Positions 26,181 to 55,171 of a DNA stretch of 64,000 bases are shown here, in pieces. Both the position numbers and the translations under genes were made by a program. The stretch comes from an uncultured Nitrospirota bacterium (GTDB taxonomy: Bacteria > Nitrospinota > Nitrospinia > CAJXCL01), in NCBI GenBank assembly GCA_913051775.1, contig CAJXCL010000003.1, positions 3,492 through 67,491 of the forward strand. Direction: 5' to 3'. The notes beneath the pieces are model-generated. The model ran no database searches. It was not told where the DNA came from and was given only the letters and a program-made list of their open reading frames with translations. Numbering within the stretch: the stretch's first letter is position 1; each line of letters starts with the position of its first letter.

Positions 26181-27152
26181 TTGAGCGAACTTTATACTCA
26201 AAAGTTAGTCTTTGAACATAATCACCTCTCGAGAAAACTTTTCGGAGTCAAAGATCAGCACTTAATTCTCATCGAAAAAAAATTCAAGGTACGGGTTACT
26301 ACTGGAAAAGATTGTATTTTGATCAAAGGGGAGGAAGAGGATGCATCGAAAGTATATCGGCTTCTACAAAATCTGCTTGATTTATTGACAAAAGATTTTA
26401 TTTTTAGAAACCGGGATTTTAAGTTTATTCTAAGCCTGTGGGAAGATAATGATAATCCGGATATAAAAAAGATATTTTCAGAGCGTATTGAAACCACTTC
26501 TGAAAAAGGATACATAACACCAAGGAGCATAGTCCAGTATGAATACGTCTATGCTATAGATAATTTTGATGTAGTCATTGGGATAGGTCCTGCCGGAACA
26601 GGGAAAACATATCTTGCTATGGCAAAAGCAGTTTCGGCATTGCAGAAAAAAAAATTAGGACGGATTGTCTTGGTGAGGCCTGCTGTTGAAGCGGGGGAAA
26701 AACTTGGTTATCTGCCCGGAGATATTTTAGAAAAAATTAATCCCTATTTAAGGCCCCTTTATGATGCGCTCTACGATATGGTAGGTATGGAACAGGCACG
26801 GCAGATGGTTGAAAACGGTATAGTAGAAATTGCTCCATTAGCCTTTATGAGAGGTAGAACGTTGAATGATTCCTTTATTATTCTGGACGAGGCACAGAAC
26901 TCCACTCCGGAACAAATGAAAATGTTTTTAACCAGATTGGGGTTTAACTCTAAAGTAGTTATTACAGGAGATATTACTCAAATCGATTTGCCCGGTCATC
27001 AGAAATCAGGTTTGGTCGAAACTCAACATATTCTTAAGGGAGTCAAAGATATTGAGTTTATTCATTTCAGCGAACGGGATGTTGTAAGAAATGATGTTGT
27101 AAAAAAGGTAATCAAAGCTTATGAAAAATATGAAGAAAAAAAATATTGCTAA
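26181..27152 (+). CDS. phoH: PhoH family protein
   Basis: GIGPAGTGKTYLA, RPAVEAGEKLGYLPGD, PLAFMRGRTL, ILDEAQN and GDITQIDL motifs. Confidence 0.95.
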   Translation: MSELYTQKLVFEHNHLSRKLFGVKDQHLILIEKKFKVRVTTGKDCILIKGEEEDASKVYRLLQNLLDLLTKDFIFRNRDFKFILSLWEDNDNPDIKKIFSERIETTSEKGYITPRSIVQYEYVYAIDNFDVVIGIGPAGTGKTYLAMAKAVSALQKKKLGRIVLVRPAVEAGEKLGYLPGDILEKINPYLRPLYDALYDMVGMEQARQMVENGIVEIAPLAFMRGRTLNDSFIILDEAQNSTPEQMKMFLTRLGFNSKVVITGDITQIDLPGHQKSGLVETQHILKGVKDIEFIHFSERDVVRNDVVKKVIKAYEKYEEKKYC

Positions 27153-40924: not shown

Positions 40925-42109
40925 ATGCCAATGGCTGTACTAAGGATAATCAGTATCAGCAGACGCGGAGATATCCCCGCATTTCATACCCCATGGTTGA
41001 TAAACAGACTGGGGGAAGGATATTGTCATTTTCAGACCCCTTACGGAGGGAAAATTCGAGAGGTTTCCTTAAAACCTGAAGATTGCGACGGCCTGGTATT
41101 CTGGACTCGAAATCCTTTTCCTCTGTTTAAGTACATTAATGAACTGAAAGATCGTGGGTATTGTTTTTATTTCCATTTTACAATTACCGGTTATCCAAAT
41201 CCTTTAGAATCACACACGCCTCCTCTCTTAAAGTCAATCGAACGATTTATAAACCTGTCGGAAAAAATAGGGTCGGAAGCTGTTCACTGGAGATATGATC
41301 CTGTTATCTTGAGCAGCCTGACTTCGGAAGCCTTTCACATAGAGAATTTTTCTTTTATAGCAAATAAACTCAAAAAAAGTACAGGGATATGCACTATTTC
41401 TTTTATCCAATTTTATGAAAAATCCCGTGGTAATTTTAAAAAAATCACTGAACAGCACGGAATTCGGTTTGACAATCCTTCTATGGAAAGAAAGATAAAA
41501 TTGGCAAAAACTTTGAAGGGAATAGCGGCAAAAAACGGAATAAATCTCAGGAGTTGTTGTGACAATTCCTTGCTGTCCGCGGGCATTCTGAAAGGAAGCT
41601 GCGTTGGCCCTGAATATCTTTCACTCATAAAGCGGCAAGTTGCCGCATCCACCATTAGGTATGGAAAGCCGAATTGGACGGCTTCTAGAGGAAAGCCGCC
41701 CGAAGGGTTGAGGCCATGGAAGGCAGAGCTAAGCTCAGCTTTGCCGATAATTAAATGGAGCTACCGCACCAACAAGCAAACAGAAAATTCTTTTAAGCTT
41801 TGCATAAGGCACTGTAAAAAACAAGAACTAACAGTGCCTAAAAAAAAGAAGCTTTTACAGTGTAATATTATAAAAACTGACTCCTATGGTAACTGGGAAA
41901 AAAGACCAACAAGAAAGGGGTGCGCCTGTTTCGAATCGGTTGATATAGGGACTTATGAAACCTGCACTTTCGGTTGTTGTTACTGCTATGCCACGCGCAG
42001 CAGAGAATCCGCGTTAAAACATCTTAAAAACTATGATAAAAACGACTCAATCCTTGTAAGACCCAAAAAATTTAACAATAAAAATATACGATTTACTAAT
42101 GCCGATTGA
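40925..42109 (+). CDS. DUF1848 family protein carrying an in-frame repeat insertion
   Basis: ISISRRGDIPAF, VFWTRNP, FTITGY, WRYDP and C.C..S.DIGTYETCTFGCCYCYA motifs; about 80 extra codons derived from repeat family A. Confidence 0.85.
   Translation: MPMAVLRIISISRRGDIPAFHTPWLINRLGEGYCHFQTPYGGKIREVSLKPEDCDGLVFWTRNPFPLFKYINELKDRGYCFYFHFTITGYPNPLESHTPPLLKSIERFINLSEKIGSEAVHWRYDPVILSSLTSEAFHIENFSFIANKLKKSTGICTISFIQFYEKSRGNFKKITEQHGIRFDNPSMERKIKLAKTLKGIAAKNGINLRSCCDNSLLSAGILKGSCVGPEYLSLIKRQVAASTIRYGKPNWTASRGKPPEGLRPWKAELSSALPIIKWSYRTNKQTENSFKLCIRHCKKQELTVPKKKKLLQCNIIKTDSYGNWEKRPTRKGCACFESVDIGTYETCTFGCCYCYATRSRESALKHLKNYDKNDSILVRPKKFNNKNIRFTNAD
41630..41876 (+). repeat. Dispersed multi-hairpin repeat family A, copy 1 (inside the DUF1848 CDS)
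   Basis: GCGGCAAGTTGCCGC...GGTATGGAAAGCCGAATTGGACGG...CCGCCCGAAGGGTTGAGGCCATGGAAGGCAGAGC...AAGCTTTTACAGTGTAATATTATAA; ends approximate. Confidence 0.85.
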
Positions 42110-47419: not shown

Positions 47420-47872
47420 TTATTTGGAAGAGCATTTAGAACAAGTGCCGTATAGTTCGAGCCGATGAGATGTTATTTTAAACTTATGCTTCCCAGCTAT
47501 CTTCTCCTGAGTCTCTTCTATTTCAGGGTTTTTAAACTCAATAATCTTTCCGCATTTCAGGCAAATGAGATGGTCATGATGGGTATGCAGGTAGTTGTGT
47601 TCGTAATGGGCCTCGCCTTTTTCAAAGCGGCTCATCCTTGCGAGACCGGCATCATGGAAAAGCTTCAGGTTTCTATATATGGTCGCAATTCCGATTGAGG
47701 GGTCTTCTTCGTTAACCTTTTTATGAAGTTCCTCCGCTGTGATATGTCCTTCTTCTTTTAGAAATGCTTTAAGTATGGTGTTTCGCTTGGATGAATGACG
47801 AAGGTTCTTTTCCGATAAAAAATTTGTTAAAAGCTGCTTTTCTTTATACATTTTCTTGAAAGTTTTTAGCAA
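47420..47872 (-). CDS. fur: Fur family transcriptional regulator
   Basis: HITAEEL, IGIATIYRNLKLF, HHDHLICLKCGKIIEF and HRLELYGTCSKC motifs. Confidence 0.93.
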   Translation of the reverse strand: MLKTFKKMYKEKQLLTNFLSEKNLRHSSKRNTILKAFLKEEGHITAEELHKKVNEEDPSIGIATIYRNLKLFHDAGLARMSRFEKGEAHYEHNYLHTHHDHLICLKCGKIIEFKNPEIEETQEKIAGKHKFKITSHRLELYGTCSKCSSK

Positions 47873-51621: not shown

Positions 51622-52617
51622 TTAGAACTCTGCTGCTAACTTGAGAGTGGCTATATCTATATTATCATTAGTACTAGAATTATCATAATTTCCATGAAGG
51701 TATTCCAGGGAGGCTGAGACCCCATCCCATATCTGGTAAGAAGCGGCCACCCCATACTGGTCCTTCGGAGAAGTAAAAAATTCATCATTCCCTTCATACT
51801 TGATGGCAGCCTCTAACTTATCTGTAACGCCATAAGCAGCCTCAACGTTCCATGCCCTGGGTTGGTCTCCGTTTCCATCACTATCGCCATCTAAATCTGA
51901 AGAAGCAAAGTCATCGAGCGCTCCTAAATACTCGGCTTCTACAGTTAATGGTCCAAAGGTAGTCGAAACGAAAGCGCTAAAACCGCCTACTTCGTCTATA
52001 AAGTTACTGCCGCTCAACAGATCGGCGTCAGTATCAGCCATATCAGAGATATAGGAGGCCCCAAGGATAATTCCTTCCACAGGTGTAACTTCAATGGCAA
52101 CTACGTAATCATCCACAAGAGTATCATCTCCTATCTTCTTCACGTCCCCATTGAATGCACCTGCTTTAACAGTAAAGATGTCCTGATTGTAGGCAATGAT
52201 AAATGGCGATTCCCTGGTCTCACCCAATTGAAGTGTGATGGGATCGCTAACAAAGTGGCTGTTAAAGGCGCCAAAGGGGAGGTACGCCTTACCTACAGTC
52301 ACGGATAGACCATCGAGCTTGCCTAAAGTCATGGTACCCACATCGAATTGAAGCGGATCTGTATCATCTTCTTCCCATTTTAAATTTATCTGACCATGGA
52401 CATATTGGTGTAGGTTCATCCCTACAGCCAGTTCTGCAGTAGCTGTGGTGATATCACTCGCATTTGTGTCTCCTCCTGCTGCTAAATCTGTACTGCTGTA
52501 AAAACTTTCTGCCTCAAGAACACCACTGATCTCAAACTTTTCGGCCAATACAGGCTTCGGCAAAATTAATAAGCAAACAATCATTAAAACTATAAATTGA
52601 ACTTTTTTCACTCTCAA
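51622..52617 (-). CDS. LbtU-like outer membrane porin
   Basis: Signal peptide; ISGVLEAE, ATAEL, YLPFGAFNSHFVSDPITLQLGETRE motifs; terminal Phe typical of beta-barrels. Confidence 0.78.
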   Translation of the reverse strand: MRVKKVQFIVLMIVCLLILPKPVLAEKFEISGVLEAESFYSSTDLAAGGDTNASDITTATAELAVGMNLHQYVHGQINLKWEEDDTDPLQFDVGTMTLGKLDGLSVTVGKAYLPFGAFNSHFVSDPITLQLGETRESPFIIAYNQDIFTVKAGAFNGDVKKIGDDTLVDDYVVAIEVTPVEGIILGASYISDMADTDADLLSGSNFIDEVGGFSAFVSTTFGPLTVEAEYLGALDDFASSDLDGDSDGNGDQPRAWNVEAAYGVTDKLEAAIKYEGNDEFFTSPKDQYGVAASYQIWDGVSASLEYLHGNYDNSSTNDNIDIATLKLAAEF

Positions 52618-52669
52618 TCTCCTTTTTAGTTGAAATACAGTTTTTATAACAAACAGAGAATAATCAGCA

Positions 52670-52708
52670 AAATGCCCCGGCTATTTTTTGTTATTGACCG
52701 GGGCTATT
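52670..52708 (-). terminator. Imperfect hairpin between p19 and the porin gene
   Basis: AAATGCCCCGG...CCGGGCTATTT inverted repeat. Confidence 0.3.
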
Positions 52709-52827
52709 TACAATATTATTGCCAATAGTTCACTGATTTTCCCTGCTGTTTTTATTTGAACTATCGTTCCAGAATTTGTATGAGGGAAAGAAAAACACTC
52801 CCACAAACAAACTATCTTTATTTGTAC

Positions 52828-53370
52828 TTATTTTGCTCCTTTAAAATCGAAATCCCACGTAGCATTAAAAGACTCCCACCATGGAGCGACGCCTGATACA
52901 GGGTCCGTATGCCTTGCAAGTTCACGACTGTCGGGTGGAGCTATATGAAAGATTAGCTTATACTTACCATAAGGGAGGAATATTTGAGCCCCGTAATGAG
53001 GGCCGTCTTTTGCCACCATGGGCAAAGCCTTCCCTTGGATCATTGTCCCGTTTGTGTCTTTAATAGTGTAGCCGACCCTAAGATTTGGAATCCATTCTCC
53101 GGCGCCAAATCCATTTTCATTTCCTTGAATGGCATGAATGTCTGCTTCAATATGAATGGTTTCTCCCGTTTTTTTCTTTTTCAAATCACCCATACTCGAC
53201 ATGCCTTCCATTTTTACCGGTGGTAGCCATACGGCTGCAATTTCCAACTTGTTTTTTTCAATACTATCGCCGATAGGGTACTCCCGGAAAGGAACTTCTC
53301 CTTGTGCAATAGAGGAAAACATAATAGTTAAAGCTAATCCAAAAAAAATCGTTTTTCCTGAATGTTTCAT
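52828..53370 (-). CDS. p19/Tpd/FetP-type periplasmic Fe/Cu-binding protein
   Basis: EYPIG, EIAAVW, HIEADIHA..GN.NGF..GEWIP, MVAKDGPHYG and RHTD...GV.PWW motifs. Confidence 0.93.
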   Translation of the reverse strand: MKHSGKTIFFGLALTIMFSSIAQGEVPFREYPIGDSIEKNKLEIAAVWLPPVKMEGMSSMGDLKKKKTGETIHIEADIHAIQGNENGFGAGEWIPNLRVGYTIKDTNGTMIQGKALPMVAKDGPHYGAQIFLPYGKYKLIFHIAPPDSRELARHTDPVSGVAPWWESFNATWDFDFKGAK

Positions 53371-53684
53371 TTACTCTCCTATTTAAATGTAATAAATGTA
53401 AAATTATAAAAATGTGTACGCCAACTTCGTAATGCCAGATTGTTTTGTCGGACATCTGAAAGTTCGTTCTTTCCAGATTCCCTCTAAAATAATTTGACAA
53501 CACCCCTACATTAGTAAAACTTCTCAGAATCTTTGCTCAATGATCTTTTTGACACCTCCTTCCTTTATTGAGAGATGGAGGGACAGTACTTGCGAGAGAG
53601 AGGAGGGTAATGCAAAATTATTTATTAAACACAAGTACTGCCCAGACATATTATTTATACACAGCAATAAATTTTCAAATAAAT

Positions 53685-53708
53685 ATAATGATACGTATTA
53701 TCATTATC
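53685..53708 (-). promoter_or_regulatory. Fur box
   Basis: Minus strand GATAATGATAATACGTATCATTAT; the first 12 nt match the consensus GATAATGATAATCATTATC exactly; lies just downstream of a consensus promoter. Confidence 0.8.
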
Positions 53709-53721
53709 AAGTAATATGAAA

Positions 53722-53750
53722 AGTATATACAAGCTGCATGGTCTTGTCAA
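53722..53750 (-). promoter_or_regulatory. Sigma70 promoter of the iron-uptake locus
   Basis: TTGACA, 17 nt spacer, TATACT on the minus strand. Confidence 0.75.
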
Positions 53751-53815
53751 GCTTTTTTTATTTTATTTAAAAAAGGCAGTTGCATAATAAGACTATGAAT
53801 ATAAAACTGAACTCA

Positions 53816-54010
53816 TCACGCAACAGATTCTGTTTCGAGCAGAATCTGTTTGCTGTCCATCTCATGTATTGGAATCTCCCTGCTTTGTCCAAGAATGGTT
53901 TTTGCCTGATCACGGCCTATAACCATCGCAGTGTCCAAAAATATATATTGGAATAGTCCTTGACGTCCTAAAGTTGTGATATTTTTAAAACGGTGTTTGT
54001 AGATTTCGGG
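53816..54010 (-). pseudogene. Possible FAD-dependent oxidoreductase C-terminal remnant
   Basis: Manual translation FKNITTLGRQGLFQYIFLDTAMVIGRDQAKTIL resembles the GR.G.F.Y...D.A...G end of PPO/UGM-like flavoproteins; no start. Confidence 0.35.
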
Positions 54011-54246
54011 TCAAGTCATGAACGACATTTTTCGGACTGGCTGATTAGGAGATTGTCATAACAAAATATAGAGTTTTTTTGAAGCACCTTAAAATCTTAT
54101 ATTTTAAATGATAGGGAATGGATACAGGAAAAGCGGGATTGGTGTTTTGCGAACGTATTTCCCGGAGACTTACCCTAAGCCACTCTTGCGCCGGGTGAGT
54201 ATTGTGGGGAACTTGGTTATGTTAATGGTTTTTTTTTAAGAGGGGT

Positions 54247-54322
54247 TGGTGGGCGGAACAGGGCTCGAACCTGTGACATCCGGCTTGTAAGGCCGACGCT
54301 CTCCCAGCTGAGCTACCCGCCC
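54247..54322 (-). tRNA. tRNA-Val(TAC)
   Basis: GGGCGGGTAGCTCAGCTGGGAGAGCGTCGGCCTTACAAGCCGGATGTCACAGGTTCGAGCCCTGTTCCGCCCACCA; full cloverleaf with CCA. Confidence 0.97.
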
Positions 54323-54357
54323 TAAAATAATTGGCAATATAGTTTTAAAAGACTAAA

Positions 54358-54386
54358 AGTATATCTATCGATAAATTAAGTGTCAA
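54358..54386 (-). promoter_or_regulatory. Sigma70 promoter of tRNA-Val
   Basis: TTGACA, 17 nt spacer, TATACT; about 35 nt upstream of the tRNA. Confidence 0.75.
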
Positions 54387-54397
54387 GGTTAATTTAA

Positions 54398-55171
54398 TTA
54401 ATATATCTTGATTATTTTTTTGATCATAAAATCAGCTTCGTAAATAGATTCTGAATCCTTAATTACTTCTCCCCTTAATGCCATGAATTTTCCTACGTAC
54501 TGCTTCAGATCCTCCTGTAAAGAACCTTTGATATAATAAACTCTTTTTTTTCTTTTGCTTTTATTGATTAATGCAAGCTGTTTCCCTTGGTTTTCCCAAT
54601 TTTGAAGTGTGCCATATATAGTTTTGAAAGGTTTTTTGCTGGATTTTTTAATTTTTTTCTTAATACTCTCTGAACTTAAAATTACCGGTAAATCACTCTG
54701 TTTAACCACATAAAATCCATAATGTATTGATTTAAAAGGTGGAATGCTGTATTCCCTGTTGCTATGAAAATAAAATGCTTTCACTTCAATCTTTTCTTTG
54801 CTCTCATGCTCAAGTATTTTTACTTTATCTATTTTGTAGTTATCAGTTGGATGAGAAAGAATCGCGATAACCATTCTTGATGAGAAGTCGTTTCTGAGTA
54901 ATTGTCGTTCGAGACGTAGTGCTTTGTTATGTGTTGTAATGTTCCGAATTTTTCTGAATTTGTTAAATAAATAGGTAACACCATCTTTTGAACGGATGAC
55001 ACTAATGTATGGAGGCTGGCTTAAGTTGGTTCCCTTAACAGTGGTTATGAAATTTCCCTGGTATTTTTTGATAAGCCTGATTTTTTTTGGGGAGGCATGG
55101 AGAAAGGTAGCATGTAAAGAGACAAAAAGCATGATGGTTATAATTTTTAAACCCGATTTTCTACTCTTCAT
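54398..55171 (-). CDS. Exported, very basic hypothetical protein (possible PrcB-like domain)
   Basis: Signal-like N-terminus, 257-aa open frame; MVIAILSHPTDNYKID...HYGFYVVKQSDLPV is loosely PrcB-like. Confidence 0.6.
   Translation of the reverse strand: MKSRKSGLKIITIMLFVSLHATFLHASPKKIRLIKKYQGNFITTVKGTNLSQPPYISVIRSKDGVTYLFNKFRKIRNITTHNKALRLERQLLRNDFSSRMVIAILSHPTDNYKIDKVKILEHESKEKIEVKAFYFHSNREYSIPPFKSIHYGFYVVKQSDLPVILSSESIKKKIKKSSKKPFKTIYGTLQNWENQGKQLALINKSKRKKRVYYIKGSLQEDLKQYVGKFMALRGEVIKDSESIYEADFMIKKIIKIY

Follow-up and report, generated by a model that had tools for sequence, protein, structure and literature searches.

A Fur-boxed promoter and a long, structured 5′ leader that accumulates as RNA upstream of a Nitrospinota p19 iron-transport gene

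Introduction

One of the closest described counterparts of the locus analysed here is the cj1658-p19 type of Fur promoter of Campylobacter jejuni, where iron represses p19 and expression of the gene is high when iron is limiting (PMC3815106). The Nitrospinota locus has in common with it a p19 gene of the family PF10634 lying near the gene for an FTR1 permease, a Fur box built from GATAAT hexamers and a fur gene in the genome, and high expression under iron limitation would be expected for it as well (PMC3815106). It differs in the order of its genes, which is p19, a gene for a 329-aa protein and then FTR1, and in the position of its promoter, which lies ~345 nt from the start codon. It differs also in the leader in between, which is structured and CU-rich and accumulates alone.

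A second group of related systems is formed by the FsrA, RyhB and PrrF small RNAs (sRNAs). FsrA uses a C-rich single-stranded tract against Shine-Dalgarno (SD) regions. The Nitrospinota leader resembles these RNAs in having a Fur box at its promoter, in giving an abundant non-coding RNA no longer than a few hundred nt and in carrying a C-rich single-stranded tract. However, it does not form a gene of its own, it has neither an intrinsic terminator nor an Rfam match, it is limited to one species-level lineage and, at ~270-340 nt, it is longer than those sRNAs.

Thirdly, premature termination in 5′ UTRs and the stable 5′ UTR fragments that accompany it are widespread in Escherichia coli (Adams et al. 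2021, PMC7815308), and stable 3′ ends just past stem-loops are typical of RNAs that have been terminated by Rho and trimmed by exonucleases (Dar and Sorek 2018, PMC6061677). In the latter study rut sites are found downstream of protective hairpins, an order opposite to that in the present leader (PMC6061677). With Rho-dependent 5′ UTR termination in E. coli the locus shares a long untranslated leader with a tract in which C exceeds G, a 5′ fragment found alongside full-length mRNA, and possible RNA ends (here contig ends) that fall before the coding sequence beside a stable stem-loop with no U tract. The differences lie in the host, an uncultured marine Nitrospinota bacterium, and in the C-rich tract, which is upstream of the protective hairpin and partly paired; a role for Rho is proposed here by analogy.

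A fourth comparison is with the STAB-SD type of 5′ mRNA stabiliser, exemplified by cryIIIA of Bacillus thuringiensis. Here too the 5′ UTR contains a strong SD-like sequence (GAAAGGAGG/AAGGAGG) that lacks a conserved start codon after it and is associated with a stable 5′ segment of RNA. The STAB-SD mechanism has been described in Firmicutes, which possess RNase J, and a stabilising role of this kind would be conjectural for the Nitrospinota leader.

Nitrospinota are the ocean's main nitrite oxidisers, and their enzymes are iron-demanding. Very little is known of the ways in which they sense and ration iron, since most of their lineages are uncultured. The locus provides a concrete regulatory unit for this phylum, in which a promoter active in situ bears a canonical Fur box. 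It is a new, lineage-restricted case of known kinds of element, namely a Fur-controlled iron-uptake promoter joined to a long 5′ UTR from which a stable leader RNA derives. An earlier note, made from the letters of the sequence, had read the region as a Fur-boxed promoter driving a structured leader with anti-SD tracts, and had offered an iron-sparing sRNA or an attenuator as its function. The promoter and the leader have stood up well to the present analysis, the proposed functions less so.

Gene content of the locus

All coordinates refer to the window, that is, the whole 64,000-nt stretch of DNA that was analysed (Table 1). The p19 coding sequence opens with an ATG at 53370 and matches the Pfam model Iron_transport with E = 2e-48. 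Members of its protein cluster carry the source annotation 'iron transporter [Nitrospinota bacterium]', and the identical protein is encoded on at least 70 marine metagenome contigs. The 329-aa protein encoded between p19 and the permease gene is without a Pfam match. A Fur-family ORF (47420-47872; PF01475 FUR, E = 2.2e-39) lies 5 kb downstream of p19 on the same strand.

Upstream of p19 there are ~330-345 nt of untranslated leader with no conserved ORF. A coding role for two minus-strand ORFs of 47 and 79 aa was rejected (neither has a Pfam match), as was one for a plus-strand ORF of 34 codons, whose ATG is lost to a 3-nt deletion in variants L182 and L178 and which is broken by indels. The region 53371-54250 is not a repeat within the window, blastn-short against the 64 kb giving no match longer than 15 nt. 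A search of 53371-53760 with cmscan against Rfam 15 at E <= 10 gave no relevant match to any family; between them, this search and one of the window as a whole at the gathering threshold yielded two tRNAs and chance-level matches only, with no known riboswitch or cis-regulatory family at the leader.

Table 1. Features of the p19 promoter, leader and gene, in the order of transcription
Feature	Coordinates	Strand	Remarks
Sigma-70-type promoter, TTGACA (53750-53745), 17-nt spacer, TATACT (53727-53722)	53722..53750	-	11/12 consensus
Interval holding the transcription start	53697..53716	-	RNA contig 5′ limits and prediction from the -10
Fur box (GATAAT hexamer array), TTGATAATGATAATACGTATCATTAT	53685..53710	-	at or just downstream of the transcription start
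Hairpin 1, 14-bp stem and 35-nt loop	53581..53643	-	dG -20.7 kcal/mol, z = -6.0
C-rich, G-poor tract (19 C, 3 G in 40 nt)	53570..53609	-	composition; possible Rho loading site, anti-SD or seed
Internal SD-like run, AAGGAAGGAGG	53555..53565	-	GGAGG kept in all lineages
14-codon GTG ORF, MSKRSLSKDSEKFY	53511..53555	-	probably not a gene; nucleotides patchily conserved
Hairpin 2, long imperfect stem-loop	53429..53503	-	dG -19.8, z -2.3
AU-rich spacer and p19 SD AGGAGAG (53380-53374)	53371..53428	-	candidate termination/cleavage zone
p19 / FetP-type periplasmic Fe2+ transport protein gene	52828..53370	-	PF10634
Terminator-like hairpin GCCCCGG...CCGGGGC (52704-52674) and U-rich tail AUUUUGCUGAUUAUU	52660..52704	-	3′ of p19

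The promoter and its Fur box

The promoter and the Fur box of the earlier note are both present. The block around the -35 hexamer, AAAAAAAGCTTGACAAGA, is invariant across the lineage variants, and the -10 hexamer reads TATA[CG]T in all of them. Within the Fur box, which begins 12 nt past the -10, the best 19-mer (53708-53690) agrees with the E. coli consensus GATAATGATAATCATTATC at 16 of 19 positions and is the top match in the 64-kb window. Matches to the consensus with at most four mismatches number five in the window against 0.65 expected from shuffles, and three of the five overlap at this one box. In the sister lineages the box scores 16-17/19, and its halves TTGATAATGATA and TATCATTAT are conserved across the lineage variants.

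Two other promoters were considered. A proximal candidate, TTACGA-18-TATAAT, is not conserved. A second, TTGATA-17-TATATT, was rejected as the only promoter because RNA contigs extend upstream of its predicted start.

Transcription of the leader and of p19

Parts of the locus occur in 21 public metatranscriptome runs, from which Logan contigs were placed on 52500-54450, those of 19 runs at >=95% likeness. These are contigs and not raw reads; they carry no strand information, their depth is a crude measure of abundance and their ends are not true RNA ends. In run X25 a single contig covers 52723-53697 and in X26 another covers 52721-53684; both are ~970 nt long and 100% identical to the window. 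They span the leader and p19 and continue to ~105 nt past the stop codon, ~20 nt short of the terminator-like hairpin. Leader and p19 RNA are thus contiguous, which bears out the ~345-nt transcribed leader proposed from the sequence.

The 5′ limits of contigs from the window lineage, over all runs, are 53697, 53695 (twice), 53694, 53690 and 53684, all within the Fur box. Upstream, at 53754-54132, depth is zero in 19 of 19 runs at >=95% likeness, and no window-lineage RNA was found above 53697. Since the contigs stop at 53684-53697 with nothing upstream, transcription is placed as starting at ~53716-53697, and a start near 53371, which the earlier note had named as the case against itself, is excluded as the only one for p19. 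The sequence TTGACA-17-TATACT is the working p19 promoter, and in the window lineage it is this Fur-boxed promoter that drives the p19 leader, as had been proposed. The start as predicted from TATACT would lie at ~53715. The limit at 53697 could reflect the loss of RNA ends in library preparation; alternatively, an internal GATAAT of the Fur box (53708-53703) could itself act as the -10, with transcription then beginning near 53696.

Sharp boundaries and empty flanks argue against DNA carry-over as the source of the window-lineage contigs. In one vent metatranscriptome sample, at 80% likeness, a sister-lineage contig of low depth runs through the promoter (53441-54009), and here DNA contamination is possible.

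Leader-only RNA accumulates in several of these metatranscriptomes. In 7 of the 21 runs leader contigs are found without any p19 contig, at up to ~33x. The strongest case is X33 (53427-53695, 32.7x), and X34, from the same sample, has the same ends at 13.7x. X43 has 53456-53668 at 12.7x and X45 has 53416-53574 at 16.9x, whilst X31, X35 and X44 hold leader only at low depth. Four of the high-depth leader-only runs belong to a single study, in which two of them share a sample. With the leader at 13-33x and no coding sequence assembled, leader RNA is taken to be far commoner than the coding part in those samples. A graded version is seen in X27, where depth falls from 33 through 23 to 9.5 between the leader and the 3′ part of the coding sequence. 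In other samples full-length p19 mRNA dominates, and three runs hold only pieces of the coding sequence, at 2-3x.

The check that had been suggested on RNA data, for a discrete 5′ transcript, thus finds leader-only contigs with scattered 3′ limits: 53427 (X33 and X34), 53416, 53447, 53456 and 53376, which are contig ends and not true RNA ends. The limit at 53427, found twice, lies 2 nt beyond the base of hairpin 2, a stem-loop with no U tract.

Structure of the leader

Taken whole, the 356-nt leader is not unusual in its predicted structure (z = -0.79). Its first hairpin, which had been proposed as a long hairpin with a CU-rich loop at 53643-53580, folds as described. The arm GGGCAGUACUUGUG (53643-53630) pairs with CGCAAGUACUGUCC (53594-53581), none of 200 shuffles is as stable, and the loop displays the CU-rich CCCUCCUCUCUCUC (53607-53594). 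Hairpin 1 is predicted in all four sister variants with dG between -16.7 and -23.2 kcal/mol and z between -3.8 and -4.8. This stability is held through different sets of pairs and not through classical covariation: all four changes fall in the 5′ arm, where three break a pair and one makes a G-U pair, and the 3′ arm is invariant. In the sister lineages an added G and a GC/AC insertion give new pairs at the base of the hairpin. No invariant block of the leader is longer than the 3′ arm TCTCGCAAGTACTGTCCCT (19 nt, permutation P ~0.03).

The CU-rich tracts are likewise as the earlier note had them. The tract at 53609-53570 lies at the 99.97th percentile for excess of C over G amongst all 40-nt windows on both strands of the 64 kb. 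It includes, at 53582-53570 on the minus strand, a second CU tract CCCTCCATCTCTC / CCCUCCAUCUCUC. Its segment TACCCTCCTC and the loop segment TGTTTAATAAAT are invariant across the lineage variants, and the CU tract in the loop of hairpin 1 is predicted to be 83-95% unpaired in four of the six variants folded.

Such a tract could gate the translation of p19 by covering its SD, as the earlier note had suggested. The folds argue against this. In partition-function folds of six variants the p19 SD is never partnered by the CU tracts; it is predicted to pair with nearby U/C residues or with U runs further away. Where the CU tracts pair, they do so with the internal GGAGG: a CU tract is the predicted partner of AAGGAAGGAGG in the window and in two of five folded sister variants, and the local hairpin at 53585-53550 has dG -10.4 and z -1.6. 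An apparent co-variation between the loop (UCUCUC to UUUUCUC) and the SD region (GAGAGU to GAGAAAA) is not relied on, because it consists of 5-7-bp, low-complexity matches only.

The tract could instead act elsewhere. Leader-only RNA would then be a trans-acting, Fur-repressed sRNA derived from a 5′ UTR, its CU loop pairing with the SDs of mRNAs for iron proteins to spare iron. The Fur-boxed promoter is what such an RNA would have, the leader accumulates without the coding sequence in seven runs (up to 33x), the predicted exposure of the CU tract suits a seed, and TACCCTCCTC and the adjoining 19-nt block are invariant whilst the 5′ arm and the flanks vary. Regulatory RNAs derived from 5′ UTRs are documented in E. 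coli (PMC7815308). Against this, the leader matches no Rfam family, has no terminator of its own, ends at heterogeneous 3′ limits, diverges as much as synonymous sites do and is confined to one 90%-identity p19 cluster. The pairing check suggested in the earlier note gave no encouragement either: over 54 start regions of the window the mean duplex energy of the CU tract was -9.3, compared with -9.6 for shuffled probes, and 74% of shuffles reach its best value. Pairing with an SD is to be expected of CU-rich RNAs in general, so that the argument from pairing lacks specificity. An action in trans is therefore regarded as unlikely, and the assignment to the FsrA/RyhB type in particular fails for want of an Rfam match, a terminator and conservation beyond one species-level cluster.

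Of the strong SD and the 14-codon GTG ORF that the earlier note had pointed to, the sequences are present, and it is the start codon and the frame that have not been kept as in a gene. If translated, this uORF or leader peptide would control downstream termination or p19 translation, and uORF-dependent Rho attenuation is known, as in mdtU (PMC7815308). The GTG has an SD-like AAGGA 5 nt upstream of it, and 53549-53511 has the lowest density of variable sites in the leader (3 of 35, P ~0.02). However, the GTG is changed to GCG or hit by a 1-nt deletion in L005, L183, L179 and L181, and so is absent from 4 of 10 leader-bearing sequences, or two of the four lineages. All five codon substitutions are nonsynonymous. 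Moreover, GGAGG abuts the start codon with zero spacer; only the upstream AAGGA could serve as an SD, because GGAGG and the GTG share a G, the final base of the one and the initial base of the other. A translated uORF thus seems very improbable.

Hairpin 2 is predicted in all lineages and shows one compensatory change, from G-C to A-U. Between it and p19, the spacer at 53371-53428 has no terminator-like fold (dG -1.7, z +0.9), and a search for an intrinsic terminator within the leader found none. In the sister lineages this spacer carries, next to the ribosome-binding site (RBS), an insert of 57 nt with a Fur-like palindrome, GAATAATTTTATTC.

Evolution of the leader

At four loci with an identical p19 protein the leader is identical too. 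Three further lineage variants, represented by L005, by L177/L182/L178/L180 and by L179/L181/L183, fall in the same 90% p19 cluster. Beyond them there is a gap, a collection of 5.8 billion proteins holding no p19 proteins between 92% and 69% identity, and single-protein scans of genome and metagenome contigs for close relatives returned nothing. An nhmmer profile of the leader, run on 183 loci, matches only within the same 90%-identity cluster, and the leader is absent from the 160 loci retrieved by alignment-based scans of genome and metagenome contigs. The next relatives, with 63-69% p19 identity and including metagenome loci, have dissimilar leaders of 44-100 nt. On the criterion of conservation that the earlier note had set for itself the outcome is therefore divided, the hairpin and CU tracts being kept in four sister lineages and the leader being absent from the next relatives.

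One of these next relatives, the p19 of Nitrospinaceae UBA7883 at 64% identity, is preceded by TTGACT and then, 68 nt from its ATG, by a large Fur-like palindrome. This arrangement supports, from sequence, the control of p19 by Fur in the phylum. Because it is found there, the long leader looks like a recent, lineage-specific feature that came after the control of p19 by Fur.

Such an origin invites the reading that the long leader has no regulatory role at all: an accident of rearrangement would have moved the Fur promoter 345 nt away, and the leader RNA would be a structured intermediate that decays slowly. The absence of the leader from all other p19 loci examined and the short leaders of the next relatives are in keeping with this. 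So is the rate of change, the leader of the window being 81-84% identical to those of the sisters whilst four-fold degenerate sites of p19 are 87-89% identical. Amongst the sisters p19 is ~99%, the leader 90-94% and the promoter/Fur segment 85-89% identical. These identities indicate no overall purifying selection on the leader, and the locus looks mosaic. No net covariation was found in the leader (RNAalifold, covariation term +1.9), and the 57-nt indel sits beside the RBS.

Other features are harder to square with neutrality. Invariant blocks of the leader are longer than permutation predicts, though only modestly so (P ~0.02-0.03), and these P values are inflated because the variable columns included the 57-nt indel. 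In every lineage both hairpins remain stable despite ~15% divergence, the helix in some lineages gaining base pairs at its foot where internal pairs have been lost, and the CU tract is an outlier in composition. Lastly, the ratio of leader to coding sequence is above 10 in some samples and near 1 in others, a difference that suggests a condition-dependent process. A leader without function is considered less likely than one acting in cis, but it is a serious rival and more likely than an action in trans. If the leader is no more than a stable decay fragment, what is left is an ordinary Fur-regulated iron-uptake promoter.

A proposed mechanism

The reading favoured here, with somewhat better than even confidence, is that a Fur-repressed promoter is followed by a cis-acting leader whose transcripts are prematurely ended or processed. 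The local Fur protein (47420-47872) probably represses the promoter through the box at 53710-53685, at or just after the start. Iron-dependent repression at initiation would be expected from what is known of Fur and from the regulation of p19 in C. jejuni. When transcribed, the locus would give a ~1-kb, largely monocistronic p19 mRNA with a ~330-345-nt untranslated leader. Many transcripts, however, may end or be cut before the p19 RBS, roughly at 53456-53376, and the product would be a leader RNA of ~270-340 nt. Hairpins 1 and 2 are likely to protect this RNA, so that it would outlast or outnumber the coding part. The leader would thereby act in cis as a checkpoint after initiation.

The likeliest route to such 3′ ends is factor-dependent, Rho-type premature termination on a long, untranslated, C-rich and G-poor RNA. 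This route fits in that the RNA is long and untranslated, the tract in which C exceeds G lies ~105-145 nt from the start, and contig ends fall beside a stem-loop with no U tract. The fit is imperfect, since hairpin 1 takes up half of the C-rich tract in base pairs, a condition that does not favour the loading of Rho. Alternatively, an endonuclease may cut within the AU-rich stretch, the RNA then being trimmed back to hairpin 2.

A further extension would make the leader an RNA of dual function, in which release from Fur under iron scarcity frees a 5′ RNA of ~300 nt whose CU loop represses iron-rich proteins in trans. This is an improbable addition. Were it true, the leader would be the first iron-sparing riboregulator in iron-dependent nitrite-oxidising bacteria, and one that arose recently from a 5′ UTR and not as a stand-alone gene.

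On the preferred reading, that of a cis-acting leader behind a Fur-repressed promoter, the ratio of leader to coding sequence is the quantity of interest. If this ratio responds to iron, it might serve as an in-situ marker of iron stress for these bacteria. The leader would then also be a case of a regulatory 5′ UTR of very recent origin, given that relatives at 63-69% p19 identity lack it.

In several ocean metatranscriptomes the leader RNA is among the better-covered pieces of this organism.

Mosaic divergence of the p19 locus

When the p19 coding sequence was compared with the leader, the untranslated stretch between the Fur-boxed promoter and the p19 ATG, in three sister lineages (loci L005, L182 and L181), p19 was found to be 98.7–99.1% identical overall and 98.7–100% identical at four-fold sites, whereas the adjoining leader shares only 90–94% identity and the promoter/Fur segment 85–89%. 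The contrast is a mosaic pattern, which suggests that the coding region recently underwent recombination or a sweep, or that the regulatory region evolves fast.

The sister lineages (L005 and L177–L183) also carry a 57-nt insert just 5' of the p19 RBS that is missing from the window lineage. Within it lie the palindrome GAATAATTTTATTC, a possible promoter, TTAACA-17-AATATT, and a match to the Fur consensus that is weak (14/19) and lies 36 nt 5' of the ATG. With this insert the window lineage may have lost a second Fur-controlled promoter, one proximal to p19. Two other Fur-consensus matches in the window are probably chance matches, since both lie inside long ORFs.

At the more distant loci L007 and L009, where the p19 homologue is 69% identical, p19 directly follows a transposase split into HTH_21 and rve_3 pieces, and the gap between them is only ~94 nt and contains no Fur-like box. 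This arrangement adds to the signs of frequent rearrangement at p19 loci in these marine lineages.

Features around p19 and other Fur-consensus matches (window positions)
Feature	Position	Strand	Context
Fur-consensus match, 15/19	26445–26463		inside long ORF 26181–27152
Fur-consensus match, 15/19	40939–40957		first codons of long ORF 40925–42109
Terminator-like hairpin	52704–52674		3' side of p19
Insert site, sister lineages	between 53399 and 53398		just 5' of p19 RBS
Perfect 11-bp hairpin, AACAGATTCTG-CTCGAAA-CAGAATCTGTT	about 53850–53822	minus	inside spacer
Spacer, ~490 nt	53760–54247	minus	between tRNA 54250–54322 and p19 promoter

Sequences flanking the p19 transcript

The spacer upstream of the promoter contains no ORF and has no window-lineage RNA coverage in the metatranscriptome contigs. 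It is ~89% identical to the sister lineages, a conservation above that of the transcribed leader. Sister-lineage contigs span 53441–54009 in one vent metatranscriptome, with the limit at 54009 recurring in two runs, a hint that transcription may start farther upstream or that the spacer may hold an unannotated RNA.

On the 3' side of p19, contigs in RNA from three runs break at 52721–52723 or 52740, ~20–35 nt ahead of the terminator-like hairpin, and the metatranscriptome runs X29 and X30 gave separate contigs running on into the next gene (52500–52721). The breaks could mark a site of RNA processing or come from a variant strain, or transcription could read through into this gene, whose 329-aa product has no Pfam match.
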